A stretch of DNA of 32,000 bases from Acaryochloris marina S15 (lineage in GTDB: Bacteria; Cyanobacteriota; Cyanobacteriia; Thermosynechococcales; Thermosynechococcaceae). The translations under genes were made by a program, and so were the position numbers. Shown here piece after piece: positions 3,122 through 25,577 of the stretch (positions are counted from its first letter, which is position 1; each line of letters starts with the position of its first letter). The notes under the pieces were generated by a model, which was not told the origin of the DNA, did not search any database, and was given only the letters and a program-made list of their open reading frames with translations. The stretch is from NCBI RefSeq assembly GCF_018336915.1, contig NZ_CP064923.1:4080001-4112000 (forward strand). The letters run 5' to 3'.

Positions 3122-4189
3122 TTATTTGGTAAGGGCGTGTAGTTTCTCTCCACGCAGGCCATGCCAAAGGCCACCGCCAACCATCCAAAGAAGTCCAAGA
3201 ATCAGTTGAAGGGCGGCTGCACCTCCACGGTCTACTCCATGAAAGATGGGAGGGTAGGCTACATCGCAATATTTGATGAAGATGGAGGAGCTAATGCCCA
3301 TGAATCCAACTGCAGCGACGCTCCAGGAAAGAATGACCTCGCCATTGAGGATTCCTTCGGAGGTGGTCCAACCACCATTTGCGGGTGAGAAGACGGGACG
3401 CTTGTTGAAGATGGGGGTAGCTTGACGATAGACGATGTGGAAAATTGCACCGGCTACGTCTAGGGCGCCAACGAGGAAGTGTCCACCGATGACGTCTTCC
3501 ATGTTGTCGACTGCGGCCATGCCGGCTCCGCTCCAGCCGTTGGGGGTGAATCCGAACAGATAGCCAATCAGGCGAGCAGGATTCAGGTTAGGGCTAATTT
3601 GATGAACGGTTTCAGTGTTGATGTCATACATTCCGGTGCCGTAGGCGGCGTTGCCGGCGAAGATTAAGCACGCAACTCCGATGAAGAGTAGGTGATAACC
3701 CAGAATGTAGGAGGTGCTCTCAAAGTCTTCCCACTCATAGTGGAAGCCAGCGGAGGTGCTGCCTTCGGGACAGTCGCTCAGACGAGCTTCTCCTCGGAAG
3801 GTGTGATACAAACCGGCTGCACAACATACGGCGGCGATGAAAAAGTGCAGGACCCCAATCACGAAGAAGGGGTAGGTGTCGACGATCTCTCCACCGGCAC
3901 CAACGCCAACCCCAAGGGCGGCGAGGTGGGGCATGAATACCATGCTCTGCTCTGATAGGGGAATGCCGGGCTGATAGCGGGCGACTTCTTGAACGATGAA
4001 GGCGCCTGGGACAACACTCATCAAGGCTGCGTGGCACTGATGGGCTCCCAAGAGCATCCCTGATAGGTCGGTCATCCGGACGTTGCCGGCCCACCATTGG
4101 TTCTCAAAGTTGCTTAATACGGATGTCGGTAATTCGTTCTGAACGGCGGCTGCCTTACCGCCTCTTCTTCCTCTTGCGAATGCTGTCAC
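3122..4189 (-). CDS. Pcb/IsiA (CP43-prime) family chlorophyll-binding antenna protein, divergent paralog with an Arg-rich N-terminal extension
   Basis: The 355-aa size fits a six-helix CP43-like protein without the large lumenal loop. Motifs seen are WWAGN, GAHQCH and GGEIVDTYPFF. The start is GTG, preceded by agagga. The gene looks markedly GC-richer than its neighbours. Confidence 0.85.
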   Translation of the reverse strand: MTAFARGRRGGKAAAVQNELPTSVLSNFENQWWAGNVRMTDLSGMLLGAHQCHAALMSVVPGAFIVQEVARYQPGIPLSEQSMVFMPHLAALGVGVGAGGEIVDTYPFFVIGVLHFFIAAVCCAAGLYHTFRGEARLSDCPEGSTSAGFHYEWEDFESTSYILGYHLLFIGVACLIFAGNAAYGTGMYDINTETVHQISPNLNPARLIGYLFGFTPNGWSGAGMAAVDNMEDVIGGHFLVGALDVAGAIFHIVYRQATPIFNKRPVFSPANGGWTTSEGILNGEVILSWSVAAVGFMGISSSIFIKYCDVAYPPIFHGVDRGGAAALQLILGLLWMVGGGLWHGLRGEKLHALTK

Positions 4190-4375
4190 AACTGTTTTCC
4201 TCTTTTGTCTTCTGTATTCGGAAATAGAAATATTTTTATGTGTACCCCATACCAGAACAATGGCATGGCTCCGACAGGTATAAGTAATGGCTTTTAGAGC
4301 TTGAAGTTCTGTCTAACTAAAATGCCTAGAGACTCAACTCAAGCCTAAGCCTAAACACTTTTAACTCAATAATTA

Positions 4376-4420
4376 GGGTGACAGTAATGACTGAAACAAT
4401 CGCTCAATCTACTGCCACCC
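4376..4420 (-). terminator. Candidate stem-loop (terminator or processing site) between the two pcb-like genes
   Basis: In the minus-strand transcript, gggtggcagta pairs with tactgtcaccc (11 bp including one G-U) around a 23-nt loop. It is followed by an AU-rich tract, uaauuauug. The large loop makes this weak. Confidence 0.3.
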
Positions 4421-4469
4421 CAATATCAAGAAGAAATCAAAACAAAGCTGATGGTAGTTCCAACAATAC

Positions 4470-5519
4470 TTAGTTTGTTTCGGGAGTTAAGCTTGCTAAT
4501 GCTTGAGGAATGCGACGGAAGTCGAATCCATAGGAGCGAAGAGCATGGAATAAGTGGCCCTGGAGGCAATAAAAAGCCCAATAGTAGTGGAAATTAGAAA
4601 TCCAGAAACGAGTTGTATGTCCGCCCTGAGAAGGATCTAAAGTTTCTGCAAAGTAAGGCGTGACATTCAATTTGGCTTCCAAAACGGGGCCAAACAGCTC
4701 TACAGGAAATACAACGTCATTTACAGAGCAGAAATACGCTGCATTAAAGCCAGCAAAAGCTAGACCCGCTAAAGCATACCCTAACAATGCTTCGCCATTC
4801 TTGATGTATAAGCGATCGGTATATGGCCAAGGCTTAACAAGAATGTGGAAGATACCACCAAAGACATAGAGTGACGCGACAAAGAAATGACCGCCAATCA
4901 CATCTTCAAGGTTATTAACGAAGTAAGGGTTAAAGCCAGGAGTTGCCCAACCATACTTGAAGAATCTGACTAAATTGAGGTTCGGAGTGATTGCACGGAC
5001 CTCTCCGGCGACAGGATCATAAATCCCATGGGTACATGCCCAAGTCGCAAACAATAGGCATGCTGCGCCTAAAAAGATGAGATGGTGGCCCAGGATACGT
5101 CCCTGAGTTTCAAAGTCATCCCACTCAAAATGGAATCTTCGAGCTCCAGCAAATTCGCTTTCGGATAAAATCTTGGGACCTTTGGTAACCCCATAAAGAG
5201 CACCAGCACCAAAGACTGCCGCTGCAATCAGGTGAATCATGCCAATTGCAAAGTAGGGATAGGTATCTACAATGGCGCCTCCAGCAGCAACACCCCAACC
5301 AGCGCGGGCTAACTGAGGAAGACAAACTAGATTTTGCTGATAAACAGGTAAGTCTGGATTAAATCGACTTAATTCGTAAATGGTGAATGAACCAGCCCAA
5401 AAAGCCATGGAGCCGATTTGGCCATTATGAGCAGCTATAAATTGGCCGCTGTAGTCGGTATAGCGGGAGTTCGACGCCCACCAGCCGTACTCAACGTCAG
5501 GTTGTCCATAAGTTTGCAT
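4470..5519 (-). CDS. Pcb/IsiA (CP43-prime) family chlorophyll-binding antenna protein, IsiA-like N-terminus
   Basis: 349-aa ORF. It begins MQTYGQPDVEYGWWASNSR, which is typical of IsiA/Pcb. It also has GGAIVDTYPYF. A strong RBS (gaggagga) precedes the ATG at 5519. Confidence 0.9.
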   Translation of the reverse strand: MQTYGQPDVEYGWWASNSRYTDYSGQFIAAHNGQIGSMAFWAGSFTIYELSRFNPDLPVYQQNLVCLPQLARAGWGVAAGGAIVDTYPYFAIGMIHLIAAAVFGAGALYGVTKGPKILSESEFAGARRFHFEWDDFETQGRILGHHLIFLGAACLLFATWACTHGIYDPVAGEVRAITPNLNLVRFFKYGWATPGFNPYFVNNLEDVIGGHFFVASLYVFGGIFHILVKPWPYTDRLYIKNGEALLGYALAGLAFAGFNAAYFCSVNDVVFPVELFGPVLEAKLNVTPYFAETLDPSQGGHTTRFWISNFHYYWAFYCLQGHLFHALRSYGFDFRRIPQALASLTPETN

Positions 5520-12198: not shown

Positions 12199-13650
12199 AT
12201 GTCTCAGTGTCTTAATCCTGAGTGCTTGCACTCCAATGCCAGTGATAGTTCAACATGTCAACAATGTGGTTGGTCTCTACTCCTAGGCGGGCACTATCGT
12301 GCCATTCGATCCCTGGGAACAGGGGGGTTCTCAAATACCTTTTCGGCAATAGATGAGCACTGTTTGCAGTCTCCATGCGTGATCAAGCAGTTTATTCCAC
12401 CTCAATTAGATCCAAGCCGGGTAGAGAAATCAATCGCCCTTTTTCATCAAGAAGCATCGATATTAAAGGAACTGGGCAATCACCCCCAAATCCCTTCGCT
12501 ATTGGCTTTCTTAGAACAGGACGGACAGCTTTATCTGATCCAGGAATTTATCGAAGGGCAAGATCTATTTCAAGAAGCCATCGAAAATGGCCCCTTCAGT
12601 GAACAGCAGATTCAACAACTGTTTACAGAGCTGTTGCCGATCTTGCAGTTTATTCATGAGCGACAGGTGGTCCACCGAGACATCAAACCCGGCAATATTC
12701 TTCGTCAAGAAAATGGCTCCCTGGTACTGATTGATTTTGGGGGGTCCTTACAATTGGAAGGCCAGTTTCGACCCGTCACCGGAACACCTGGCTATGCCTC
12801 CCCAGAACAACTCAAGGGCCAAGTAGAAGCAGCTAGCGATTTACATAGCTTGGCAATAACAGCGATGCGCCTCTTGACAGGATATCTTGCCCAAGAAGAC
12901 TCAGATCCCTTTGCCAATCCGCAACAACGGCATCAAGTCTGGCATCGCCTCAAGGTCAATGTCAGCCCTGAACTAACGCAAATTTTTGATAACCTTCTCC
13001 ACCCAGACATTCAACAGCGGTATCAATCAGCCATCGAAGTGTGGCAAGCCCTAAGTCCCAATGCGAACCTATCGTCTAGCCCTTCACCCAGTCTTCAGAC
13101 CCTGTCGTCCCCCCTACAACCCAAAATGACGACCTCTGCATCAACCCCTGTCCTAAAAAGCGATGTAGGGGCAAATTACACCTATTTAAAAGACTTATTA
13201 ACCCAACAAAATTTCGCTGCTGCTGACCAAGAAACTTGGAATCTGATGCTAAAAATTGCGGGTATGACCACACAAGAAGCGCTCAATATTCAGGTAGTTC
13301 AGAATTTTCCTCTCCAAGATCTAAAAACTTTAGATTCTTTGTGGACAGAGTATAGTGGTGGACACTTTGGATTTTCAGCTCAAAGACAAATCTACCAGCG
13401 GCTCGGCGGTTCTCAAACGTTAGATTACGCCGTTTGGCAAACATTTGGAAAGCAAATCGGTTGGTTTAGCGAGGAACGATGGCAAGACTATACCAACTTA
13501 AAATTCACCCTCAGCGCACCGATCGGTCACTTACCCGCTTGTTTCGCAGATCCTCTTAATCGTCAGGGGGTTGACCGAGGTGTTTGCGGGTGGTGGCGCT
13601 TAGGATTTGTAACCCTCATTCACCGCCTGACATCATCAGTGAATGAATAA
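12199..13650 (+). CDS. Ser/Thr protein kinase with an N-terminal 4-Cys zinc-ribbon-like motif and a C-terminal GUN4 (porphyrin-binding) domain
   Basis: The 4-Cys motif uses C4, C9, C20 and C23 (CLNPEC..CQQCG). Kinase motifs are GTGGFS, VIK (K63), HRDIKPGN, DFG and TPGYASPE. An S/P-rich linker spans 286-320. Residues ~322-475 look like GUN4 (AADQETWNLMLKIAG, FPLQDLKTLDSLWTEYSGGHFGFSAQ, GHLP). Confidence 0.85.
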   Translation: MSQCLNPECLHSNASDSSTCQQCGWSLLLGGHYRAIRSLGTGGFSNTFSAIDEHCLQSPCVIKQFIPPQLDPSRVEKSIALFHQEASILKELGNHPQIPSLLAFLEQDGQLYLIQEFIEGQDLFQEAIENGPFSEQQIQQLFTELLPILQFIHERQVVHRDIKPGNILRQENGSLVLIDFGGSLQLEGQFRPVTGTPGYASPEQLKGQVEAASDLHSLAITAMRLLTGYLAQEDSDPFANPQQRHQVWHRLKVNVSPELTQIFDNLLHPDIQQRYQSAIEVWQALSPNANLSSSPSPSLQTLSSPLQPKMTTSASTPVLKSDVGANYTYLKDLLTQQNFAAADQETWNLMLKIAGMTTQEALNIQVVQNFPLQDLKTLDSLWTEYSGGHFGFSAQRQIYQRLGGSQTLDYAVWQTFGKQIGWFSEERWQDYTNLKFTLSAPIGHLPACFADPLNRQGVDRGVCGWWRLGFVTLIHRLTSSVNE

Positions 13651-13997: not shown

Positions 13998-16085
13998 GTG
14001 ATGACACATTCTTCTACTCCCTTGGACATCGATACGGCTGACCAGGAGGATCTTCCTACCCATCAAAACTCATCAAGATCGGCCGATCCGTCCTTTCACA
14101 TCCAGGACTTAGAGGCCGATGAGCCTACATCTGGCCCCTGGGATATGCAGATGGATGTAAGTGAAGCAGAAGCCAATCGAGGAGAAACGTTAGAAAGTCA
14201 GAATTCACATCCTGAAGCCCAAGCAACCGCCACTTCTAGCTGGGCTGCATCCCCCTTGGCAGGCCCTGTGAAGAATAAAGACGCTCCCTTTAAAGCTAAA
14301 GCCATATCTCTGGCCTTGGCGGTCAGTATGTTGCCAGTGCTCGCAATCGGAACCGTCACTTACTTTAGTGGGCAACTCGTTCAGCAACAAATTACTCAGG
14401 AACGGCAAGCTGGTAAACCAGATCTTCAAGTAACCGAACGCTCTATTCAGCAACAACTCCCTTCCCTATTGATTGGAACAGGAATCACAGCCCTTCTGGC
14501 CGGTGCGATCGCAGCTTGGTTAGCCCATCGAGCAACAACTCCTGTACTTAAAGCAGTTCAGGTCTCTGATGAGATGCTTCAGCAAATTCGGCCGGGTATG
14601 GTTAAGTCCGGGGAAGCTGAAGCAAATATCTTAAGCCAGCTAGAACATAATATTCGCAGCATCGAAGGCTATATCCCTGCGCTATTGGCCCAGCAAGATG
14701 CCGAAATTGAGCAATTACAGATGCTCAAGTACGTCACCAATAAGATTCGCGCCTCACTCAATGAAGATGATGTCCTCAACACCACCGTTGAAGAAGCTCG
14801 CAAAATCATCAAGGCCGATCGGGTCATTGTCTATGGGTTTGATGCAGACTGGTATGGCACGGTGATAGCTGAATCCGCTATTCCAGGCATTGCCAAGGCC
14901 TTATGGGCCGAAATTAGAGACCCTTGTTTTGCCGAGAACTACGTCGAGAAGTATCGTGCAGGACGAATTCAAGCCATTAATAACGTCCACGAAGCAGGCT
15001 TGACCCAATGCCATCTGGCCCAACTAGAGCCCTTTCAAGTGAAAGCCAACTTAGTGGTGCCGATTCTGCGGGAGGACAAGCTATTTGGTTTATTGATTGC
15101 CCATCAATGTACCCAACCCCGAGTATGGCAAGAGTCAGAAATCAACTTCTTTGCCCAAGTGGCCTCCCAAGTTGGATTTGCCCTTGAACATTCCCGGCTC
15201 CTGGTTCAAGTCGATCAAGCCAATAATAATGCAATGGCTAACACCCAGCAGACGGCTCAAGACTACGAAATGCTACAGCAGAGAATTTCGCAGCTTTCCC
15301 TAGAAAGTAATGGCGTGGTCGAACTATTTGGCACAGATGCCAATATGGCGATCACCCATACGCAAGACCAGATGCATGAAATTGCTGAAGCTGCGGATCA
15401 AATTCATGTCATCCTCAATGAGATTACCCAAACCCAGGAACAGGTGCAGATTGCCACGCAAGAAAGTCAAACTGGGATGACAAATACCGTGGACCATTTA
15501 CAGTCTCTATCCAAGTTGGTGGAAACCGTTGACCAATCGGTTCATCCCTTACAGCAACCCACCCAACAACTCGGTGAGCTGATTGATTTAATGGGACATG
15601 TGGTGTCCCAAGTCCAGCTACAGGCTATGAATGCAGCCCTTGAAGCGGCTCGATCTGGTGCTGCGGGTCAATCCTTTGCTGAAATTGCCGAAAAGGTACA
15701 TGGCTTATCTCGGCAGCTGGACGCGACCCTGACGGACGTCAAGCCCTTAGTCAGCCATATTCAAACAACGACTCAATCTGTGGGTCAGGAGATGTCTACG
15801 GGAAAAAACACAATTGCGGTGGATACCCAAACATTAGGCAATACCCAAGCGAAGTTGCATGAATTAAATAGCCTGAACCAACGGGTCTTAGATCTCGTGC
15901 AGCAAATTGCTGAAGTCACCACGAATCAGGTGGAATTATCGGTGTTAGGTCACAAAACCTTGGATCATCTCGCAAACACTACGCTCAGTGCCACAACACA
16001 ATCCTCCCAAATTGCAGAAGCCGTTCATCAGCTGATGGCTACGGTCAATAACGATCTCAACTCGGAAGATTCATTGTCAGCCTAG
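13998..16085 (+). CDS. Methyl-accepting chemotaxis-type protein with a cyanobacteriochrome-like GAF domain (PixJ/TaxD-like photoreceptor)
   Basis: It has an acidic N-terminus and two predicted TM helices (~103-124 and ~154-178). The GAF domain covers ~245-400. An MCP coiled-coil hairpin has its tip at MNAALEAARSG (544-554). The start is GTG 13998 or the adjacent ATG 14001. Confidence 0.85.
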   Translation: MMTHSSTPLDIDTADQEDLPTHQNSSRSADPSFHIQDLEADEPTSGPWDMQMDVSEAEANRGETLESQNSHPEAQATATSSWAASPLAGPVKNKDAPFKAKAISLALAVSMLPVLAIGTVTYFSGQLVQQQITQERQAGKPDLQVTERSIQQQLPSLLIGTGITALLAGAIAAWLAHRATTPVLKAVQVSDEMLQQIRPGMVKSGEAEANILSQLEHNIRSIEGYIPALLAQQDAEIEQLQMLKYVTNKIRASLNEDDVLNTTVEEARKIIKADRVIVYGFDADWYGTVIAESAIPGIAKALWAEIRDPCFAENYVEKYRAGRIQAINNVHEAGLTQCHLAQLEPFQVKANLVVPILREDKLFGLLIAHQCTQPRVWQESEINFFAQVASQVGFALEHSRLLVQVDQANNNAMANTQQTAQDYEMLQQRISQLSLESNGVVELFGTDANMAITHTQDQMHEIAEAADQIHVILNEITQTQEQVQIATQESQTGMTNTVDHLQSLSKLVETVDQSVHPLQQPTQQLGELIDLMGHVVSQVQLQAMNAALEAARSGAAGQSFAEIAEKVHGLSRQLDATLTDVKPLVSHIQTTTQSVGQEMSTGKNTIAVDTQTLGNTQAKLHELNSLNQRVLDLVQQIAEVTTNQVELSVLGHKTLDHLANTTLSATTQSSQIAEAVHQLMATVNNDLNSEDSLSA
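14730..15197 (+). other. GAF domain with DXCF motif plus canonical Cys-His (candidate two-Cys, bilin-binding cyanobacteriochrome)
   Basis: D308-P-C310-F311 is encoded at 14919-14930. C338-H339 is encoded at 15009-15014. The flanks are typical of CBCR GAFs (DRVIVYGFD..W.GTVIAES; FQVKANLVVPIL; LLIAHQC..W). Confidence 0.7.
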
Positions 16086-16179: not shown

Positions 16180-18012
16180 ATGACCTATTCAAGGAAGCCA
16201 GACATGGCTAATGAGACGCCGCTGCGCGATCCTGCCTATCAACTGTTTTTTCAAGAAGCATTAGAACTTTTACTGCAGATTGACACCACCTTACAAGAGG
16301 TTTTGCAAATTCCCAGTAAAACATCCATTGATTTTTTACTGGAGATGGCGCAGATCTTGGATGAGGGAGCCCAATCCCTGGATCTCACTCAGTTAGCCCA
16401 TCAGGTCCAAACCTTTTCGGGTTTCATGCTCAACTTACAGCAAGATCCCTTGGGGACGACCCCGGGGGATGCAGATCTGCTGAGGCAAGCCTATAAAGGG
16501 ATGCAAACAGCTTTAGAAGCTTATATTTCTGGCCCACCAGACTTAGACACTTCTTCAGAACTAGATTTTTCTGCCTATGTGCCTGTTTCTTTAGACGTCG
16601 CCGAAGATGAGTTAGCTGCCAATGGAAATTTAATGCTGCCAGCAGGGGGAAGCGATGTTACCTCTTTAATCTTGATCTCTGACGTTGCGGAAATTTTAGA
16701 GCAGCTCAATCAGGTATTGATCGAGCCCCAGGTCTACGACCTTGCGGCTGAGTTAAAAGCATTAACAGAAGCATTATTGGGTTGGGGAGAAGTCCTGGAG
16801 CTGAATGAGCTGACCACGATTGCTCAATCCACCTTGGAAATGTTGGACAGCAATCCCCAATCTGCGATTTCAATTGGTCAATTATCTTTGGCTGGCTTTC
16901 GAGCAGCCCATAAAACAGCCTTACAGGCATTGCAGACTGACTCTGTTTCACAGCAGAGTCCAGGGAATCAGCAGCAGAGCTCGGAGATGCTGGATACTCA
17001 ATCGATACCCACTGCCATGTTGTCCCCCATGGCTGCAGAAATTCCCACTGCTGAGTCATTATCGGCTTCAGATGAGGTGATCTTAAATGCTACCCAATTG
17101 TTTGTCTGGCAGCAGGAAAGGCTGCTATTTACAATTCCATCAGAAGCTGTGGCAGAAATCCTAATTCCTAGAGCTGAACAGTTGATGGGCAATGAGCATC
17201 AGCGTTGTTTAAGTTGGCAGCAACAATTTATCCCTATTCATCCCTTAGGGCATTTACTCAATCAAGGGGAGAGCCATTGGCCCCGGCTGACCGCAGCGGT
17301 ATTGCCTGGGAATGGAGTGGGCAGTCCCAAGGTATTTGGGAGTTCTCCCTTCGTTATTATTCATCAGGGGGGGCAGACCCTGGCGTTAGAAGTTGAAATC
17401 ACCCGATTGGTGACAGAGTCAGAGCTGGTTCTACAAATCCCAGAAGAACAAATCCATTGTCCTTATTTTTCTGGCGAGACGGCTTTGGAGTCAGAGGAGT
17501 ATGGGGTAGTAGATATTGCCGCCCTGCTCAATGAAATGTTGGATTTAAGTCCGCTGCCAATGCCAAAGGCAGTGCGGCTGTCCAGCCCAGCAGTGTCTGC
17601 CAGTCCCAAGCCTAAACGCCCTCAAAGGCTCCGTAAAAAAACGCGATCGCAAACCACAATACTCGTGGTTGATGATTCCAAAATGGTCCGCATGATGGTA
17701 ACCACGGCGCTACAATCAGCCGGATATGAAGTCCTAGAGGCTGCTGATGGGCAATTAGCCATCGAACAGGTAGAGCGAGCGGATATTCAGCTGATTATCT
17801 GTGACGTAGAAATGCCCAATATGAATGGGTTTGAGTTTCTAGAATATCGCTGCCGTCAGCCAGCCATTATGAACCTGCCGGTGGTGATGCTCAGTACCTG
17901 CAATAGCAATCAGCATCGACAGTTAGCGACAACCTTGGGCGCTAGTGCCTACCTGGCAAAACCTTATGATGAATCCAATCTCTTAGCCACCCTGCAATCG
18001 CTGGTGGGCTAA
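16180..18012 (+). CDS. CheA-like scaffold/response regulator: Hpt-like region(s) + CheW-like domain + CheY-like receiver, without dimerisation or HATPase domains
   Basis: Residues 17-88 are Hpt-like (YQLFFQEALELL...). Residues ~303-453 are CheW-like (LFVWQQERLLFTIPSEAVAEIL..FVIIHQGGQTLALEVE). Residues 493-610 are a REC domain with DD498-499, D542, S572/T573 and K594. I saw no N/G1/G2 ATP-binding boxes. An alternative start is the ATG at 16204. Confidence 0.8.
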   Translation: MTYSRKPDMANETPLRDPAYQLFFQEALELLLQIDTTLQEVLQIPSKTSIDFLLEMAQILDEGAQSLDLTQLAHQVQTFSGFMLNLQQDPLGTTPGDADLLRQAYKGMQTALEAYISGPPDLDTSSELDFSAYVPVSLDVAEDELAANGNLMLPAGGSDVTSLILISDVAEILEQLNQVLIEPQVYDLAAELKALTEALLGWGEVLELNELTTIAQSTLEMLDSNPQSAISIGQLSLAGFRAAHKTALQALQTDSVSQQSPGNQQQSSEMLDTQSIPTAMLSPMAAEIPTAESLSASDEVILNATQLFVWQQERLLFTIPSEAVAEILIPRAEQLMGNEHQRCLSWQQQFIPIHPLGHLLNQGESHWPRLTAAVLPGNGVGSPKVFGSSPFVIIHQGGQTLALEVEITRLVTESELVLQIPEEQIHCPYFSGETALESEEYGVVDIAALLNEMLDLSPLPMPKAVRLSSPAVSASPKPKRPQRLRKKTRSQTTILVVDDSKMVRMMVTTALQSAGYEVLEAADGQLAIEQVERADIQLIICDVEMPNMNGFEFLEYRCRQPAIMNLPVVMLSTCNSNQHRQLATTLGASAYLAKPYDESNLLATLQSLVG

Positions 18013-18067: not shown

Positions 18068-18289
18068 CTACACAGACTCTATTTCGTGCTCGCCCAAATG
18101 AATGCGGAGTTTTTTACTGAACTTAACGAGATAAGGGTAATTGGCGCTCACTTCTCGCCCTTGCCAGTCCTTGATGACTTGAATTAGCTCACCTTCCGTG
18201 CCTTTAATATCGAAGGGGTTATTTCGATGTTCAGGATGATGGTAGATAACAACTGATTCTTTGACGCGGACTTGATCGCCTACTTGCAT
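18068..18289 (-). CDS. ftrV: Ferredoxin-thioredoxin reductase variable subunit
   Basis: 73 aa. VGDQVRVKESVVIYHHPEHRNNPFDIKG..DWQGREVSANYPYLVKF matches the FTR variable chain as I remember it. Confidence 0.88.
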   Translation of the reverse strand: MQVGDQVRVKESVVIYHHPEHRNNPFDIKGTEGELIQVIKDWQGREVSANYPYLVKFSKKLRIHLGEHEIESV

Positions 18290-19992: not shown

Positions 19993-21342
19993 TTGTTTGC
20001 AGGAGTGATGGGCATGGCCACTGCCATCAAAATTAAACCCAAAGATCGGGATGCAGTGATTCAGGCCCTGCAAGCGGGCGTGGTTCCACGCAAAGGACAA
20101 CATTTGATTCAAGTGGGACGGGCTGAAGAAATTAAAGCCATTCTGCGAGATGTCGAACGCATCGCCGAAGGCGGCGCCGCCATCCGCTTCATTATTGGTG
20201 AGTACGGCTCGGGTAAAACCTTTTTCATCAATTTGACCCGCACCATTGCTTTAGAGAAAAAGCTGGTGACAGCCCATGCTGACCTAACGCCCGATCGGCG
20301 CTTACATGCGTCTAGTGGTCAAGCCCGGTCCCTGTATACCGAACTCATGGCCAACCTATCGACTCGCACCAAACCAGATGGTGGAGCTTTGCCCAGTGTC
20401 GTCGAACGATTTGTGACGTCAGCGATGACAGAAGGACGCGATCGCAAGGTCAATCCCGAGGACATTATCCGCGAGCGATTAGCTCATCTCTCGGAATTCG
20501 TCGGGGGGTATGACTTTGCCGAAGTAATTGCCGCCTACTGGCGCGGTCATGATAGCGGAGATGATGCCTTGAAAGCCAATGCAGTCCGCTGGCTCCGGGG
20601 AGAATTTTCAACCAAAACCGAAGCCCGAACGGCCTTAGGAGTCAGAACCATCGTGGATGATACCAACGTCTACGATCAACTCAAGCTTTTTGCCCAGCTG
20701 GTGAAACTAGCGGGATACGACGGCTTTATGATTTGCTTGGATGAGATGGTGAATCTATATAAACTCTCCAACACCCAGGCCCGCAAAAGCAATTACGAAC
20801 AAATTCTGCGCATCCTCAATGATTGTTTGCAGGGGAATGCTGGGCATTTAGGGTTTATGTTTGGTGGCACTCCTGATTTGCTAATGGATACACGCCGAGG
20901 ACTCTACAGCTATCCTGCGCTGCAAACGCGCTTGGCAGAGAATAGTTTTGCAGGTGACGGTCTAGTAGATTACAGTGGACCTGTTTTACGCTTAGCGAAC
21001 CTAAGTCCCGAAGACCTGTACGTGCTGCTGGGCAAAATTCGCCTAGTGTTTGCCGAAGGCAATACGAAGAAATCTCGCCTTCCAGATCAAGGCATCCAGG
21101 CATTTATGGCCCATTGCTCAGACTATATTGGCGAAGCGTACTTCCGTACCCCTCGCAATACCATTAAGGCCTTTGTCGATTTATTAGCAGTTCTTGAGCA
21201 AAACACCCAAGTATCCTGGAAAGATCTGGTCACTAAAGTCAGCATTGGTACGGACGTCAATGGAGGAGCCAGCCCCAAAGCAGCCTCCAAAAACGGAAAG
21301 AAAAGCCAAACCAATGATGATCTAGCTTCTTTCAAGTTGTAA
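19993..21342 (+). CDS. P-loop ATPase of the DUF2791 / BrxC-BrxD-like family (orphan)
   Basis: Walker A is GEYGSGKTF and Walker B is FMICLDEM. The N-terminus (ALQAGVVPRKGQHLIQVGR) is typical of this family as I remember it. The ORF opens at TTG 19993. A likelier start is the ATG at 20005 or 20011. Confidence 0.7.
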   Translation: MFAGVMGMATAIKIKPKDRDAVIQALQAGVVPRKGQHLIQVGRAEEIKAILRDVERIAEGGAAIRFIIGEYGSGKTFFINLTRTIALEKKLVTAHADLTPDRRLHASSGQARSLYTELMANLSTRTKPDGGALPSVVERFVTSAMTEGRDRKVNPEDIIRERLAHLSEFVGGYDFAEVIAAYWRGHDSGDDALKANAVRWLRGEFSTKTEARTALGVRTIVDDTNVYDQLKLFAQLVKLAGYDGFMICLDEMVNLYKLSNTQARKSNYEQILRILNDCLQGNAGHLGFMFGGTPDLLMDTRRGLYSYPALQTRLAENSFAGDGLVDYSGPVLRLANLSPEDLYVLLGKIRLVFAEGNTKKSRLPDQGIQAFMAHCSDYIGEAYFRTPRNTIKAFVDLLAVLEQNTQVSWKDLVTKVSIGTDVNGGASPKAASKNGKKSQTNDDLASFKL

Positions 21343-21382
21343 AAATCAGGGCTGTATCGCTTGAGTAACAGCCCTGATTTTT
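21341..21382. terminator. Bidirectional rho-independent terminator between convergent genes
   Basis: The stem aaaaatcagggctgt / acagccctgattttt is a perfect 15 bp around a 12-nt loop. It overlaps both stop codons (taa at 21340-21342 and tta at 21381-21383). Confidence 0.8.
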
Positions 21383-23255
21383 AATAGCGGGTTCCAGCTT
21401 TGCGATGATGAACTGCAGTTTTGACGTTAGATTTCAACACTTCACCGTTCTTGACCGTGGCATAGATGACCCAGTGGTCCCCACATTCCATCCGATTAGC
21501 CACTTCGCACTCCAAATAAGAGATTGATTCTTTCAGAATAGGACTGCCATTACTAGCAGTATCCGTTTCAAGCCCCTGAAATCGGTCTTCGCCTGGACCA
21601 AAAGACTTTAGGAAGTGCTTCATCGTTCGCTGATAGTTATCTTCACCCAAAATATTGAGCACAAACGTACTCTCGTTATGGAGTAAGGACTCAACGGCTC
21701 GCTCCTTGGCAACCGCAACCGTAAATCCCGGTGGATTGAAGGTGGCCTGTGAGACCCATGAGGCCAGCATCCCACTCGCAACATCGCCTTGCTTTGCAGT
21801 CAGAATACAGAGAGAACCGACAATTCGACCTACAGCCTGTTCCGTAGAAGTGGTTTGGGCTCCTAATTGGGTAGAACTTTGGGGACGAGATTTGGCTTTC
21901 TTGGCTTTCTTAATCTTTTGAGCAAAATCAGTGCCCGATTCTTCACAGCTTTTGAGAGTGACATCGGTCGGCTTGAATTTCACCTTAATGGAGTCAAACC
22001 CAAAGCTGTAACCTGCATCCCGCAACTTTCCTTCTAATAAATCAATCGCTTCACCACTCCAGCCAAAGGAACCAAAAACCCCCGTGGGCTTCGTTTTGGG
22101 AACAGTCGACAGCAGAATTCCTAGGGCCGTTTGAATTTGAGTCGGGGCATGTCCCCCAAGGGTTGGCGAACCAATAATAAAGCCCTCGCAATTGTCGGCA
22201 ACGGCTTGAATATCCTTGGGGCTAGCCGTTTCACAATTGATCACCTGCACCGCTACCCCTGCCTTGGTAATCCCTCGAGCGATCGCTTGGCCAATAGTGG
22301 CAGTATTGCCGTAGGCCGAAGCATAAAGAATCGCCACCGAACTGGTTTTCTTTTTCTGGACCTCACTCCATTGCTGATAGGTACGGGTCAGTTCCTGAAC
22401 ACCATACCGAACAATAGGACCGTGGTTAGGGGCATAGGTGCTGATCGCCAAAGGCGCTAACTTTTCGAGCACGACTTCGACCTGGCGGGCATAGGGGGCT
22501 TTCAAACAGTCAAAGTAATAGCGCCGATCTTCCCTCAGTTGAGTAGTGTTGTGGTCAAAGGCATCCTCGCTACAGAGATGAATGCCAAAGAATTTATCGG
22601 AAAAGAGCGTTCGAGTGGCAGCATCGTAAGTTAACAAGCTATCGGGATAGCGAGGCGTAGAGGCCCGAACAAACTGCAGTCGGTGCCCTTGTCCTAAATC
22701 CAGGGTCTTATCGCTGGCACTACTTCTGACAATCTTGAGATTCAGTTCATAGTCTGGGAGAGCAGATTTGAGGGCCGCTGCACCAGGGTTGGAACAAACG
22801 ATAGTGACGCTGGGAACCTGATCGAGAAGTCCCTTTAAGGTTTCTGCGCGGTTGGCATTGACATGACCCAGCACCAAATAATCCAGCGTCTGTAAATCAA
22901 AGTCAAAATCGTCTAAATCAACAGACTGCTGAGTCACCCACCGGAGTTGATCCCAAAGCCGACCGAATAGTGGTTTAAAGGCAGCACTCGACTGAGCCGA
23001 TATGGCCTGAAGCTGTTGAAAAAAGATTTCTGTGAAAGAGCCTCCTGGCGGATCGATCAGGGCAGTTTTATCCCCTTTAACGATGTAGGTATTGGCGGTT
23101 GTACCTCGTTCAAGAGCATATTCAATTTCAAATCGGAGGCGATTCCAACTGCGCGATCGCAACGCCAATGTCCCCGGTGCGACAGGAACCACCTGTACAT
23201 CTCTAGCTTTATCGGTTGCAGACTGGGAAGTGGGAGTAAGGGTGGATGGGGTCAT
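21381..23255 (-). CDS. Class-C flavodiiron protein, Flv1/Flv2-type (non-canonical diiron site)
   Basis: 624 aa with metallo-beta-lactamase-like, flavodoxin-like and flavin-reductase-like domains. HVNANR replaces the diiron ligand motif HxExDH. Its ATG at 23255 lies 4 nt after the upstream stop. Confidence 0.9.
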   Translation of the reverse strand: MTPSTLTPTSQSATDKARDVQVVPVAPGTLALRSRSWNRLRFEIEYALERGTTANTYIVKGDKTALIDPPGGSFTEIFFQQLQAISAQSSAAFKPLFGRLWDQLRWVTQQSVDLDDFDFDLQTLDYLVLGHVNANRAETLKGLLDQVPSVTIVCSNPGAAALKSALPDYELNLKIVRSSASDKTLDLGQGHRLQFVRASTPRYPDSLLTYDAATRTLFSDKFFGIHLCSEDAFDHNTTQLREDRRYYFDCLKAPYARQVEVVLEKLAPLAISTYAPNHGPIVRYGVQELTRTYQQWSEVQKKKTSSVAILYASAYGNTATIGQAIARGITKAGVAVQVINCETASPKDIQAVADNCEGFIIGSPTLGGHAPTQIQTALGILLSTVPKTKPTGVFGSFGWSGEAIDLLEGKLRDAGYSFGFDSIKVKFKPTDVTLKSCEESGTDFAQKIKKAKKAKSRPQSSTQLGAQTTSTEQAVGRIVGSLCILTAKQGDVASGMLASWVSQATFNPPGFTVAVAKERAVESLLHNESTFVLNILGEDNYQRTMKHFLKSFGPGEDRFQGLETDTASNGSPILKESISYLECEVANRMECGDHWVIYATVKNGEVLKSNVKTAVHHRKAGTRY

Positions 23256-23259
23256 GAAT

Positions 23260-23793
23260 CTATCCGTCTAACGGCAAGGAAGAACAAGGTTGAAATTGTG
23301 ATAAAAACTGCTGAACGGCTTTAGGATCGCGAAGCGTCATCACGGTCTGTGGGGAAGGCAGCGTAGCCAGCGCTTGGACAATTTTGGGGCGATTGTGACT
23401 GGGAAAACACCATACGTACCATAGGAACTGCCAGTTGAGTCGCTCGGGACAATGAGGGGCCATGTCAGGTCGAGTTTGACCACGATACTGCCAGATGCGC
23501 TTGAGGACATGTACCAGGCATTGCCAGCGAGAAAAATCTAGGAAGATAACCCTATCGGCAACCGGAAGACGCAGATCAAAAGTGCCACTGTAATTGCCGT
23601 CTATAATCCAGGCTTCTGATTGGACTAGGGCTTCCACTCGTCGCCGCCAAGCCTGTGGTTCGGTTTCCATCCAACCTGGCTGCCAATATGCTTGGTCTAA
23701 ATGGATCACTTTCAGGTTGAGAATAGACCCCAACTGCCGAGCTAAGGTAGACTTACCCGCCCCGCAATTTCCAATAATGGCAACCTTTTGCAC
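23260..23793 (-). CDS. P-loop NTPase, FlaR / topology-modulation / adenylate-kinase-like
   Basis: 177 aa. Walker A is GNCGAGKST. The HLDQAYWQPGW and IIDGNY pattern is typical of FlaR-like kinases. It sits between the two flv genes. Confidence 0.8.
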   Translation of the reverse strand: MQKVAIIGNCGAGKSTLARQLGSILNLKVIHLDQAYWQPGWMETEPQAWRRRVEALVQSEAWIIDGNYSGTFDLRLPVADRVIFLDFSRWQCLVHVLKRIWQYRGQTRPDMAPHCPERLNWQFLWYVWCFPSHNRPKIVQALATLPSPQTVMTLRDPKAVQQFLSQFQPCSSLPLDG

Positions 23794-23840
23794 TCATTTA
23801 GCCTCGAAAATACTCGCAACGATCGATAAAGGCCAAATCC

Positions 23841-25577
23841 CTAATAGTAAGTACCCACCTGTCGATGATGGACTGCTGTGAGGCTATCAGGCTTAGACAC
23901 CTTACCCACCGTAACCTCGCTATAGACCAACCAATGGTCGCTACATTCCATCCGGCTGATGACTTTACATTCCATATAGGAGAGAGCGTCTGCCAAAATA
24001 GGAGACCCATTTTCAGCCGTGCGCGTTTTGACCCCTGCAAATCGATCGGCCCCAGGTGGAAATCGCTTGAGGAAATGACTCATCAAGCTGGCATAATTAT
24101 CGGCTTCTAAGACATTGATAACAAAGGTATCACCGACCTGCATCAGGGATTCGATCGCCCGATCTTTCGCCACGGCCACTGTAAACCCGAGGGGTTCAAA
24201 GCTAGCTTGGGCAACCCAGGAGGCCAGCATGGCCCCGTTCAGATCACCTTTATGGGCCGTAAGAATATAAAGGCCACTGCTAAGACGGCCTAGGGCTTTC
24301 TCCAAATCACCATCAATCTCTTTGATCTTCTTGATGTTTTCCTTCAGAGTCAATTTTTGGCCCAGGTCCGTTCCAGATTCTTCACAGGCTTGGTAAATCG
24401 CTTCAGTGGGGGTGTCCTTGACCCGAATCGCGCTAAAGGCTTCCTTTGAACCCGTGTCTTTAAACCGAGTCAATAGGGGATCAATGGGCTGATCGTCACC
24501 CCCATAGGATTCAAAAACACCAAAAATCTGCTTACTCTTGGCAGCCGCTAAAATCTGGCTAATTGCAGTTTGGGCAACCGTAGCGTAACGGCCTGACGCA
24601 GGTGGAGTCGTGACGACAAACGCAGAAACATAGTTGATTAGTTCCTGTACTTCTTGCACATCAGCGACTTTCAAATCCATCATCTCGACGGCGACCCCGG
24701 TCTTAGAAATGCCGCGGGCAATCGCTTGGGAGAGGCGATCGCTATAGCCGTAATCGGAGATATAAAAGACCGCTGCTGTTTTCTCTGCTTTGGATTTCTC
24801 CTTACTCCACTTGCGATACCGTTCTGTTAGCTCTTGAACATTGTGACGGAGAAGAGGGCCATGGCCAGTCGCAATGGTGTTAATGCCTTCTAGCTTGTCC
24901 ATCCGCTTCATGGCTCCAAGAACAGAGCGAGCGTTGGGTCCCATCAGACATTCGTAGTAAAACCGATAGTCTGGTGAGAGGGCTTCTAGATTGGCATCAA
25001 AGGTATCGTCGGTGCAAAAGTGAGAGCCAAAGGCATCACAGGTATAGAGGATTTGAGTCTTGTGATCGTAGGTGAAGATGGTATCGGGCCAGTGCAAATT
25101 GGGGGCATTGAGGAATTCCAAAACATGACCTTGGCCGAGGTCAATTTGATCGCCATTTTTGGCAATCTGGCTGTTGAAGGACTGGTGAACAAGGTTTTCT
25201 AAAAAGCTGAGGGCAATTTTGGCGCCGACAACGGTGATATTAGGAGCGAGGGCTAAGACATCTTTAACCAGGCCACTATGGTCAGGCTCGGTGTGGCTAA
25301 TAACCAGATAATCAATCTCAGCTGGGTCAATTTCACCCTTGAGGAGGCTGAGGTATAGCTCTCGGAACTTCTCATGGGACGTGTCAATCAGGGCGACTTT
25401 GTCACCCCGGACTAGATAGGAGTTGTAGGTGGTACCGTTCTGTAACCCGAACTCGATGTCAAAGCGATCACGATCCCAATCCAAGGAGCGCATCACGGTG
25501 GTCTCTTCCCCAATCTCAAGGGTTTGCGTGGTTAATCGGTTGTCGGATTGTACGTTGCGATCGCCTAGTGCTACCAT
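23841..25577 (-). CDS. Class-C flavodiiron protein, Flv3/Flv4-type (canonical diiron site)
   Basis: 578 aa. It has SLDWDRDRFDIEFGLQNGTTYNSYL, the canonical HTEPDH motif, and flavodoxin-like and flavin-reductase-like domains. An RBS (ggagg) lies 6 nt upstream of the ATG at 25577. Confidence 0.92.
   Translation of the reverse strand: MVALGDRNVQSDNRLTTQTLEIGEETTVMRSLDWDRDRFDIEFGLQNGTTYNSYLVRGDKVALIDTSHEKFRELYLSLLKGEIDPAEIDYLVISHTEPDHSGLVKDVLALAPNITVVGAKIALSFLENLVHQSFNSQIAKNGDQIDLGQGHVLEFLNAPNLHWPDTIFTYDHKTQILYTCDAFGSHFCTDDTFDANLEALSPDYRFYYECLMGPNARSVLGAMKRMDKLEGINTIATGHGPLLRHNVQELTERYRKWSKEKSKAEKTAAVFYISDYGYSDRLSQAIARGISKTGVAVEMMDLKVADVQEVQELINYVSAFVVTTPPASGRYATVAQTAISQILAAAKSKQIFGVFESYGGDDQPIDPLLTRFKDTGSKEAFSAIRVKDTPTEAIYQACEESGTDLGQKLTLKENIKKIKEIDGDLEKALGRLSSGLYILTAHKGDLNGAMLASWVAQASFEPLGFTVAVAKDRAIESLMQVGDTFVINVLEADNYASLMSHFLKRFPPGADRFAGVKTRTAENGSPILADALSYMECKVISRMECSDHWLVYSEVTVGKVSKPDSLTAVHHRQVGTYY

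Follow-up and report, generated by a model that had tools for sequence, protein, structure and literature searches.

A CheA-derived protein predicted to lack the kinase core and the phospho-accepting histidine, encoded beside a PixJ-like photoreceptor gene in Acaryochloris marina S15

What remains for a chemotaxis histidine kinase to do once it has lost both its kinase and the histidine that the kinase phosphorylates? The question is raised by a gene at positions 16204 to 18012 of a 32,000-nucleotide stretch of the Acaryochloris marina S15 genome (contig NZ_CP064923.1, positions 4,080,001 to 4,112,000 of the forward strand; hereafter the window). An earlier reading of these letters, referred to below as the original prediction, had described its product as a hybrid CheA from which the P3 and P4 domains have been removed. 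Here we report that, judged by homology and structural modelling, the product is indeed a CheA-derived protein without the kinase core and without the phospho-accepting histidine. We further describe a whole cyanobacterial lineage of CheA descendants that have dropped the kinase, and often the phospho-histidine too, yet remain under selection and tied to a single photoreceptor methyl-accepting chemotaxis protein (MCP).

Domain composition and the missing histidine

As a reference for a complete CheA with a receiver domain we used P0020, a cyanobacterial protein of 1060 residues that, like its relatives, is labelled PixL by JGI; the closest full CheAs in the first homology search were P0021, P0024 and P0027. 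BLASTP aligns residues 9-253 of the protein to residues 1-246 of P0020 (30% identity, E 3e-22) and residues 317-607 to residues 758-1043 (38% identity, E 1e-50), and the ∼510 P0020 residues between the two blocks, comprising a linker, P3 and P4, have no counterpart here. Neither HATPase_c nor H-kinase_dim was found in Pfam, NCBIfam or the AlphaFold model, and a custom hidden Markov model (HMM) of P3+P4 built from cyanobacterial CheAs gave no match either, bearing out the view of a hybrid CheA shorn of these two domains. The features of the gene are as follows; residue numbers refer to the 610-residue frame, with the exception of AlphaFold domain limits, which are given in the 602-residue numbering. 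AlphaFold confidence is expressed as the predicted local distance difference test (pLDDT) and the predicted template modelling score (pTM).

16204..18012, + strand: kinase-less CheA-like gene, 602 residues plus stop (start shared with orthologs; called product 602 residues)
16231..16527, + strand: N1, residues 18-116, CheA-P1/Hpt four-helix bundle without phospho-histidine, or pseudo-Hpt (family profile; AlphaFold pLDDT ∼90)
16351-16353, + strand: codon CAG for Gln58, at the position of CheA His48 (alignments to 1i5n and to H48 of P0020)
16657..16947, + strand: N2, residues 160-256, second four-helix bundle, also without histidine (E197 in TEALLGWG; AlphaFold; aligns with P0020 ∼150-246)
16948..17073, + strand: Q/S-rich disordered linker, residues 257-298 (pLDDT <50; identity 0.44; the gap in the BLASTP alignment to P0020 falls here)
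17074..17541, + strand: P5/CheW-like domain, residues 299-454 (profile A5, Foldseek, BLASTP)
17656..18006, + strand: REC (receiver) domain, residues 493-609 (Pfam Response_reg, E 6.1e-26; D498, D499, D542, S572/T573, K594)
17803..17805, + strand: codon GAC for Asp542, the predicted phospho-acceptor (Asp column in relatives)

The open reading frame (ORF) is intact from 16180 to 18012 on the + strand (610 residues), its first ATG lying at 16180. All orthologs, however, begin at the second methionine (MAN.. or MD../MDH), equivalent to Met9 of the 610-residue ORF, a Shine-Dalgarno-like AAGGAAG motif precedes the second ATG by 7 nt, and the called product is 602 residues long. The true start is therefore probably Met9 (ATG at 16204).

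Family profiles were needed to recognise much of this architecture. With the single sequence, Pfam recovered REC at 494-605 (E 6.1e-26), left Hpt below threshold (E 0.51) and missed the CheW-like domain, NCBIfam gave receiver-based matches only, and a phmmer search of the PDB with the N-terminal 487 residues returned nothing. Checking the prediction against Pfam, as had been proposed, thus confirmed REC and the absence of HATPase_c and H-kinase_dim, but not Hpt or CheW. The AlphaFold model, computed from 18 sequences (mean pLDDT 70, 75-92 within domains; full-length pTM 0.33), contains four-helix bundles at 10-108 and 152-248 separated by a disordered stretch, followed by a disordered Q/S-rich linker, a beta-rich domain at 291-446 and a receiver at 485-601.

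The first helical bundle, N1, is a CheA P1 domain. Profile A3, built from N1 sequences of the family only, matches P1 of Salmonella/E. coli CheA (1i5n) over residues 11-108 with an E-value of 1.1e-8, in agreement with the BLASTP alignment to the N-terminus of P0020 (E 3e-22) and with the Hpt-like region that had been proposed here. In the profile alignment to 1i5n the consensus residue opposite CheA His48 is Gln, and the P0020 site with H48, MMRAAHSIKGGAASVGL, stands opposite LLEMAQILDEGAQSLDL in the present protein. The claimed replacement of the phospho-histidine by glutamine holds, although the residue is Gln58 and not Gln57. This position is occupied by Q or E in 16/16 family N1 sequences, its neighbours are altered as well (the Lys51 equivalent to Asp, the Gly52 equivalent to Glu), and no histidine is conserved in N1 or N2 across the orthologs aligned. 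The FRAAHKT string noted at 240-246 is present, but its H244, raised in the original prediction as a possible true phospho-site, is Tyr in most orthologs and fails as a candidate.

The second bundle, N2, is less readily classified. It is confidently modelled as a four-helix bundle at 160-256, reaching pLDDT 88 and pTM 0.78 when modelled alone; the suggestion that it is a second Hpt domain is another matter, as the hhalign probability of N1 versus N2 is 5% and the N2 profile has no sequence match in the PDB. The best Foldseek matches of N2 are Hpt proteins, including P1 of R. sphaeroides CheA3, at E-values of 0.2-0.5 and beside generic helical bundles. N2 is thus best described as a modelled four-helix bundle compatible with an Hpt fold, for which homology to Hpt is not established. 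The same bundle occurs in P0020, where it likewise lacks a histidine, which suggests an ancestral Hpt partner in this PixL-type CheA lineage as opposed to a degenerate second phospho-site. As a separate observation, N1-N2 behave as one repeat unit, with up to four pairs preceding the kinase core in giant cyanobacterial CheAs of 1,690-2,273 residues (P0121-P0127 and others).

Between N2 and P5, where full CheAs have P3 and P4, lie ∼40 disordered residues. The CheW-like domain of the original prediction can be identified as CheA P5, since profile A5 matches E. coli CheA P5 (E 7.6e-5) and the AlphaFold model of the domain retrieves CheA in the E. coli core signalling unit (6s1k_A, E 5.7e-8) with Foldseek, followed by 8c5v_A and 3ur1_A (T. 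maritima P4-P5). Against CheY and RR468 the receiver reaches target-normalised TM-scores of ∼0.9, and it retains every phosphorylation residue that had been listed for it.

Three of five CheA features, namely the phospho-histidine, P3 and P4, are therefore absent, while P1 and P5 are present. In the absence of P4 and of a phospho-histidine the protein should be unable to autophosphorylate or to relay phosphate via Hpt, as had been foreseen. PixL-type CheAs such as Synechocystis PixL are the closest point of comparison, as they share the homologous Hpt+N2 and P5-REC segments, the receiver at the C-terminus, for which PixL shows a role as phosphate sink (PMC11181946), and the gene order of MCP followed by CheA-like gene. 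They differ from the present case in that P3+P4 has here given way to a linker of ∼40 residues, Gln stands for the phospho-histidine, and no patA, cheY or cheW genes lie alongside.

Conservation and the wider kinase-less family

Homology searches identified ∼18 full-length orthologs (52-100% identical, 586-608 residues), of which those named by organism are Acaryochloris or Acaryochloridaceae; orthologs of like length occur in at least five Acaryochloris species-level genomes, including the complete chromosome of A. marina MBIC11017 (NC_009925.1, ∼1,357,980-1,359,797; 88% identity). Pairwise identity among orthologs and the ratio of nonsynonymous to synonymous substitution rates (dN/dS) against MBIC11017 differ between the segments of the gene:

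Whole gene: dN/dS 0.10
N1: pairwise amino-acid identity 0.65, dN/dS 0.13
N2: pairwise amino-acid identity 0.75, dN/dS 0.09
P5: pairwise amino-acid identity 0.67, dN/dS 0.05
REC: pairwise amino-acid identity 0.78, dN/dS 0.03
Linkers: pairwise amino-acid identity 0.23-0.44, dN/dS 0.29

Values were similar over two comparisons, with MBIC11017 and with a further Acaryochloris genome (L010), at 0.12-0.13 for N1, 0.05-0.09 for N2 and 0.29-0.40 for the linkers, and the catalytic residues of REC are invariant or nearly so within the Acaryochloris clade. N1 thus combines an Hpt fold, a substituted phospho-histidine and purifying selection (dN/dS 0.12-0.13), the properties of a pseudo-HPt, and its low dN/dS suggests that the histidine-less domain still has some role. 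N2 is better conserved than N1 within this clade, and its function is apparently undescribed.

To place the protein among its relatives, a profile of N1+N2+P5 was compared with 1.84 billion cluster representatives, yielding 939 proteins at E <= 1e-3. The best 150 of these, each representing a cluster at 50% identity, were classified with custom HMMs for N1, N2, P5, the P3+P4 core and REC. A kinase core was present in 91, typically in the order N1-N2-core-P5-REC, and lacking in ∼50, comprising 28 N1-N2-P5-REC proteins, 12 N1-N2-P5 proteins and a remainder of partial or variant arrangements. The distance from N2 to P5 in the kinase-less set is 7-172 residues, leaving insufficient room for P3+P4. 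The phospho-histidine is retained in 89/91 kinase-bearing proteins versus 19/50 kinase-less ones, the others having Q, N, E, S, K, D or R at this position. The receiver Asp (D542 column), in turn, is found in 32/36 kinase-less relatives that have REC and in 85/85 kinase-bearing ones, which suggests that phosphorylation of the receiver remains under selection without a donor in cis.

When P5 domains were compared, 49/54 kinase-less proteins had a kinase-less nearest neighbour, and in a crude neighbour-joining tree they form pure clades, one of which, of 18 representatives, contains the protein of the window. Because kinase-less P5 domains cluster in this way and the architecture recurs, the loss of the kinase is, on this comparative evidence, old and stable; the loss of the histidine follows often, but not always. 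Named members of the kinase-less family include Oculatella, Prochloraceae, Pleurocapsa/Hydrococcus and Aetokthonos, and in the Aetokthonos protein, which retains the histidine, Pfam finds Hpt, CheW and REC above threshold.

Database annotation gives little hint of this relationship. Several of the orthologs (ABW26410.1, WP_012161942.1, WP_261890731.1) are named "ATP-binding response regulator" by NCBI, although an ATP-binding domain is undetectable in them; UniProt B0C6I9 is a "Chemotaxis response regulator, putative", and other family members are annotated as "response regulator" or, in the case of a Pleurocapsa relative without REC, as "chemotaxis protein CheW". Names such as "response regulator" and "ATP-binding response regulator" render these proteins invisible to chemosensory censuses. 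The CheW-domain survey of Vass et al. (bioRxiv 10.1101/2022.05.07.491035) describes two classes, CheA.XI and CheA.XII, as belonging to the CheA lineage without HATPase_c, interprets them as split kinases that are "not degenerate", and records fusions of CheW-like domains with an Hpt or a receiver. Compared by description, these classes come without mention of histidine loss or of a link to cyanobacteriochrome MCPs, and since Pfam misses Hpt and CheW in the present protein, it would probably go uncounted in a survey of that design. A literature search of incomplete coverage produced no description of a kinase-less CheA beside cyanobacteriochrome MCPs or of correlated histidine loss, and the cyanobacterial family is apparently undescribed.

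The photoreceptor gene and its neighbourhood

The gene directly upstream encodes an MCP with two transmembrane-like segments (∼residues 102-121 and 154-177), one GAF domain and an MCP signalling domain, and its ORF is separated by 118 nt from the kinase-less gene. The features concerned, together with the gene that precedes them, are:

13998..16085, + strand: PixJ-like photoreceptor MCP gene, ORF of 695 residues, called product 694 residues (Pfam GAF 1.7e-20, MCPsignal 3.9e-16)
14766..15209, + strand: GAF domain of the MCP, DXCF-type cyanobacteriochrome (DPCF at residues 308-311; canonical Cys338-His339)
12199..13650, + strand: Ser/Thr protein kinase-GUN4 fusion (STK-GUN4), immediately upstream of the MCP gene (Pfam Pkinase 9.6e-39, GUN4 5.1e-39)

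A phmmer search of the PDB with the GAF domain identified the blue/green GAF domain of TePixJ (3vv4, E 1.2e-44), and also 4fof/4glq, so that the upstream gene is predicted to encode a PixJ-type DXCF cyanobacteriochrome MCP. The position of the kinase-less gene directly after it supports the description "receptor-coupled" in the original prediction. No other che genes, including any for a CheA4-like P3-P4-P5 kinase, were found in the window, and no complementary P3-P4-P5 kinase gene was found at the orthologous loci inspected. A promoter and terminator scan around the genes gave results at chance level.

The pairing with a photoreceptor gene recurs wherever we inspected it. At 9/9 loci the kinase-less gene lies directly 3′ of a GAF-MCP gene, with no cheA, cheW or cheY nearby; the scan of contigs that supplied orthologs used one narrow N2 peptide pattern and does not amount to a census, and the MBIC11017 locus was assessed by ORF layout only. 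The loci outside the window are:

Acaryochloris RU_4_1: GAF-MCP gene, then kinase-less gene
Acaryochloridaceae SU_2_1: GAF-MCP gene, then kinase-less gene
A. marina MBIC11017: MCP gene, then kinase-less gene (ORF layout)
Metagenomic P0134, from a different 50%-identity cluster: 2xGAF MCP gene, then kinase-less gene
GCA_029979785.1 (P0133): multi-GAF MCP gene, then kinase-less gene with the histidine retained
Pleurocapsa PCC 7327 and a Hydrococcus metagenome-assembled genome: multi-GAF MCP gene, then kinase-less gene without REC
Aetokthonos hydrillicola: 3xGAF MCP gene, then kinase-less gene with the histidine retained

Full-length CheA relatives, by contrast, occupy canonical che operons: P0024 and P0027 are encoded within patA-like/cheY/cheW/MCP-HAMP/cheA clusters, and P0020 has an MCP-HAMP gene on one side and a cheW gene on the other. 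The order STK-GUN4, MCP, kinase-less gene is also seen in Acaryochloris RU_4_1, in SU_2_1 and on the P0134 contig (STK-GUN4 genes outside the window lie at L002 4008-5483, L004 2258-3718 and L025 2262-3881), and STK-GUN4 is absent from the Pleurocapsa, GCA_029979785.1 (P0133) and Aetokthonos loci. A functional link between this fusion, whose GUN4 part belongs to a porphyrin-binding family, and the photoreceptor module is possible.

Possible modes of signalling and other genes of the window

How, then, might a CheA descendant of this kind signal? We tentatively favour its interpretation as a CheA-derived, CheV-like adaptor specific to one receptor, with a receiver phosphorylated in trans, a reading to which the conserved P5, the strict adjacency to one MCP and the retention of the REC residues without a donor in cis all point. 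The protein would have descended from a PixL-type hybrid CheA by loss of P3, P4 and the P1 phospho-histidine, with the P5/CheW-like domain, a competent receiver and the pseudo-Hpt and N2 bundles retained under purifying selection. P5 would dock on the signalling tip of the upstream blue/green PixJ-like MCP and into P5/CheW rings, and the receiver would obtain its phosphate in trans, from a CheA with a working kinase whose gene lies in another part of the genome. It would then act close to the receptor as an acceptor or sink of phosphate, or else provide feedback. The pseudo-Hpt and N2 bundles may provide a non-transferring docking surface for a receiver domain or for CheA P4, analogous to the plant pseudo-HPt AHP6. 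That the protein binds the MCP, where its phosphate comes from and what the pseudo-Hpt does are parts of this scheme that we infer, and the same applies to the action as phospho-acceptor or scaffold envisaged in the original prediction.

The closest functional parallel is CheV, in which a CheW-fold domain is likewise followed by a phosphorylatable receiver (here P5 at 299-454 and REC at 493-609). CheV has been proposed to accommodate specific receptors, and its phosphorylated form binds a subset of them (PMC4742279, PMC12691637), a specificity matched by the strict one-MCP adjacency observed here; by analogy, the receiver may be phosphorylated by CheA and the receptors coupled to CheA. In contrast to CheV, the CheW fold of the present protein belongs to the CheA-P5 lineage and is preceded by ∼290 extra N-terminal residues that form the pseudo-Hpt and N2, making it an analogue of CheV with an independent origin as opposed to a member of the CheV family. 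If the adaptor or sink model is true, it would explain how extra colour sensors connect to one kinase pathway, and the protein would be a natural test case for what histidine-less Hpt domains do, a question already asked of Pseudomonas ChpA.

A CheA elsewhere in the genome is a plausible kinase in trans, because Table S2 of Berry et al. (PMC10782961) lists an ACF-class CheA for A. marina MBIC11017 (AM1_RS22990, 777 residues, Hpt-dim-HATPase-CheW-REC). The table has an ACF-class CheA for A. marina strain CCMEE 5410 as well. A query with P0020 produced no Acaryochloris protein among the best 120 matches, thousands of cyanobacterial CheAs ranking higher.

Several points weigh against a CheV-like adaptor. 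The known A. marina CheA is of the ACF class, whereas the protein here derives from the PixL lineage, so that the two may not be compatible; Table 1 of PMC2853384 gives A. marina as non-motile, and the output may thus not be phototaxis; about a third of kinase-less relatives are without REC (12 N1-N2-P5 proteins), indicating that the receiver is not essential to the core role of the family; the low pTM of the full-length model (0.33) lends no support to particular contacts between domains; and docking on MCP and CheW, like the phosphotransfer, is predicted.

A broader generalisation is more doubtful than the adaptor itself. Cyanobacteriochrome-MCP and kinase-less CheA may constitute widespread cyanobacterial two-gene photosensory modules, in which the CheA remnant has in many lineages, including Acaryochloris, also lost its phospho-histidine, and which would signal not through a kinase of their own but through a pseudo-CheA acting on other pathways as a light-gated sink, decoy or scaffold. 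Such a mode of output would fall outside the current definition of CheA, whose core is given as P1, P3, P4 and P5, with the Rhodobacter CheA3/CheA4 split as "a unique case" (PMC10782961), and would provide the first bacterial pseudo-Hpt with a dedicated role.

Among the alternatives to the CheV-like adaptor, two seem to us unlikely to a similar degree. The first makes the protein a light-gated negative regulator or decoy, in which pseudo-Hpt/N2 competes with genuine P1 domains for CheA P4 or sequesters CheY/PatA-type regulators, so that the MCP damps another chemosensory pathway and the receiver is secondary. It would account for the conservation of N1 and N2, which resembles that of P5 (dN/dS 0.05-0.09 for N2), and for the many relatives that consist of N1-N2-P5 without REC, and there are precedents for its central element. 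Arabidopsis AHP6 is one: this pseudo-HPt acts on a phosphorelay by competition (PMC7402358), with the Hpt fold kept and the phospho-histidine replaced, by Asn in AHP6 and by Gln here, although AHP6 is a stand-alone eukaryotic protein. Pseudomonas ChpA likewise contains Hpt domains of unknown function that have Ser/Thr or no histidine at the site and are not phosphorylated (PMC10782961), but these coexist in one polypeptide with functional Hpt domains and a kinase, whereas here the sole Hpt is without histidine and there is no kinase. On the other side, the near-invariant REC catalytic residues in the Acaryochloris clade and the Asp in 32/36 REC-bearing kinase-less relatives indicate a phosphorylation-dependent role, the binding to P4 or to regulators is predicted, and the K51-equivalent to D and G52-equivalent to E changes may weaken docking on P4 too.

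The second of these alternatives, to which we assign an equally low probability, dispenses with CheA: the phosphate on the receiver would come from acetyl phosphate or from a histidine kinase of another kind, or STK-GUN4 would control the receiver, with the MCP governing access to the protein or the protein's conformation, and the two proteins would form a self-contained photosensory pair whose output is something other than motility. The isolation of the module from che genes at the inspected loci fits this proposal, as do the listing of A. marina as non-motile, the 75 HisKA and 161 REC Pfam domains of its genome (PMC2853384, Table 1) and the STK-GUN4 synteny, which recurs with a representative from another 50%-identity cluster. 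It is harder to reconcile with P5 domains, whose only known working context is the MCP/CheW/CheA array, with a REC whose closest resemblance is to those of CheA-REC hybrids, with the absence of STK-GUN4 from three inspected loci, and with the complete CheA that Table S2 of Berry et al. lists for A. marina (PMC10782961).

Far less probable is a split CheA of the R. sphaeroides (Cereibacter) CheA3 type, in which N1 would be phosphorylated in trans and would hand the phosphate on, either to its own REC or to response regulators. CheA3 is also CheA-derived, has P1 and P5 without a working kinase, and sits in the receptor array; it differs in that its phosphorylatable histidine is kept, it has no REC, it is encoded beside its kinase partner cheA4, and it contains degenerate P2, P3 and P4 remnants in a 794-residue spacer, none of which occur here (PMC10782961). 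Neither mark of a bipartite CheA, a P1 histidine and a complementary kinase gene in the operon, is present in our case, where the site is Q or E throughout the 16 family N1 sequences, H244 gives way to Tyr in most orthologs, and there is no CheA4-like gene in the operon or window; the absence of any conserved histidine in N1/N2 contradicts the model for the present gene. Nevertheless, 19/50 kinase-less relatives, including the Aetokthonos and P0133 proteins, keep the canonical AHTIKGG site, and a split kinase is plausible for those members.

Least tenable of all is the idea that the gene is a relic left by a tax operon in decay, or that an assembly error or a frameshift has truncated a longer cheA (the frameshift being a possibility allowed for in the original prediction). 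It might be suggested by the organism's description as non-motile (PMC2853384) and by the failure of Pfam to recognise Hpt and CheW in the sequence. It is refuted by conservation and selection: the ORF is intact and of the same length (586-608 residues) in five or more Acaryochloris species, among them MBIC11017 with its complete chromosome, dN/dS is 0.10, the catalytic REC residues are invariant, the architecture recurs in ∼50 clusters at 50% identity and in pure clades, and no longer cheA was found at the orthologous locus in close relatives.

The remaining genes of the window include several of separate interest. At 18068-18289 on the - strand, convergent with the 3′ end of the kinase-less gene, lies a gene for a ferredoxin-thioredoxin reductase variable chain of 73 residues (FeThRed_A, E 1e-33), whose position is kept at every Acaryochloridaceae locus inspected. 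A protein of 449 residues encoded at 19993-21342 (+) matches the BREX ATPase family BrxC/BrxD nearly end to end (PF10923, E 7e-158); its gene has moeA on one side and flavodiiron genes on the other, the window contains no further BREX component, and an ORF of similar size occupies this position in the A. marina MBIC11017 locus. At 21381-25577 (-), two flavodiiron-type genes (624 and 578 residues; ODP/Lactamase_B, flavodoxin and flavin-reductase domains) flank a 177-residue ORF without a clear family, a layout apparently like that of the flv4-sll0218-flv2 operon of Synechocystis. Finally, tandem genes at 3122-5519 (-), encoding 355 and 349 residues, match only the N-terminal half of the photosystem II CP43/CP47 family (PF00421), and would presumably fit the Pcb/IsiA-like chlorophyll-binding antenna proteins of Acaryochloris.

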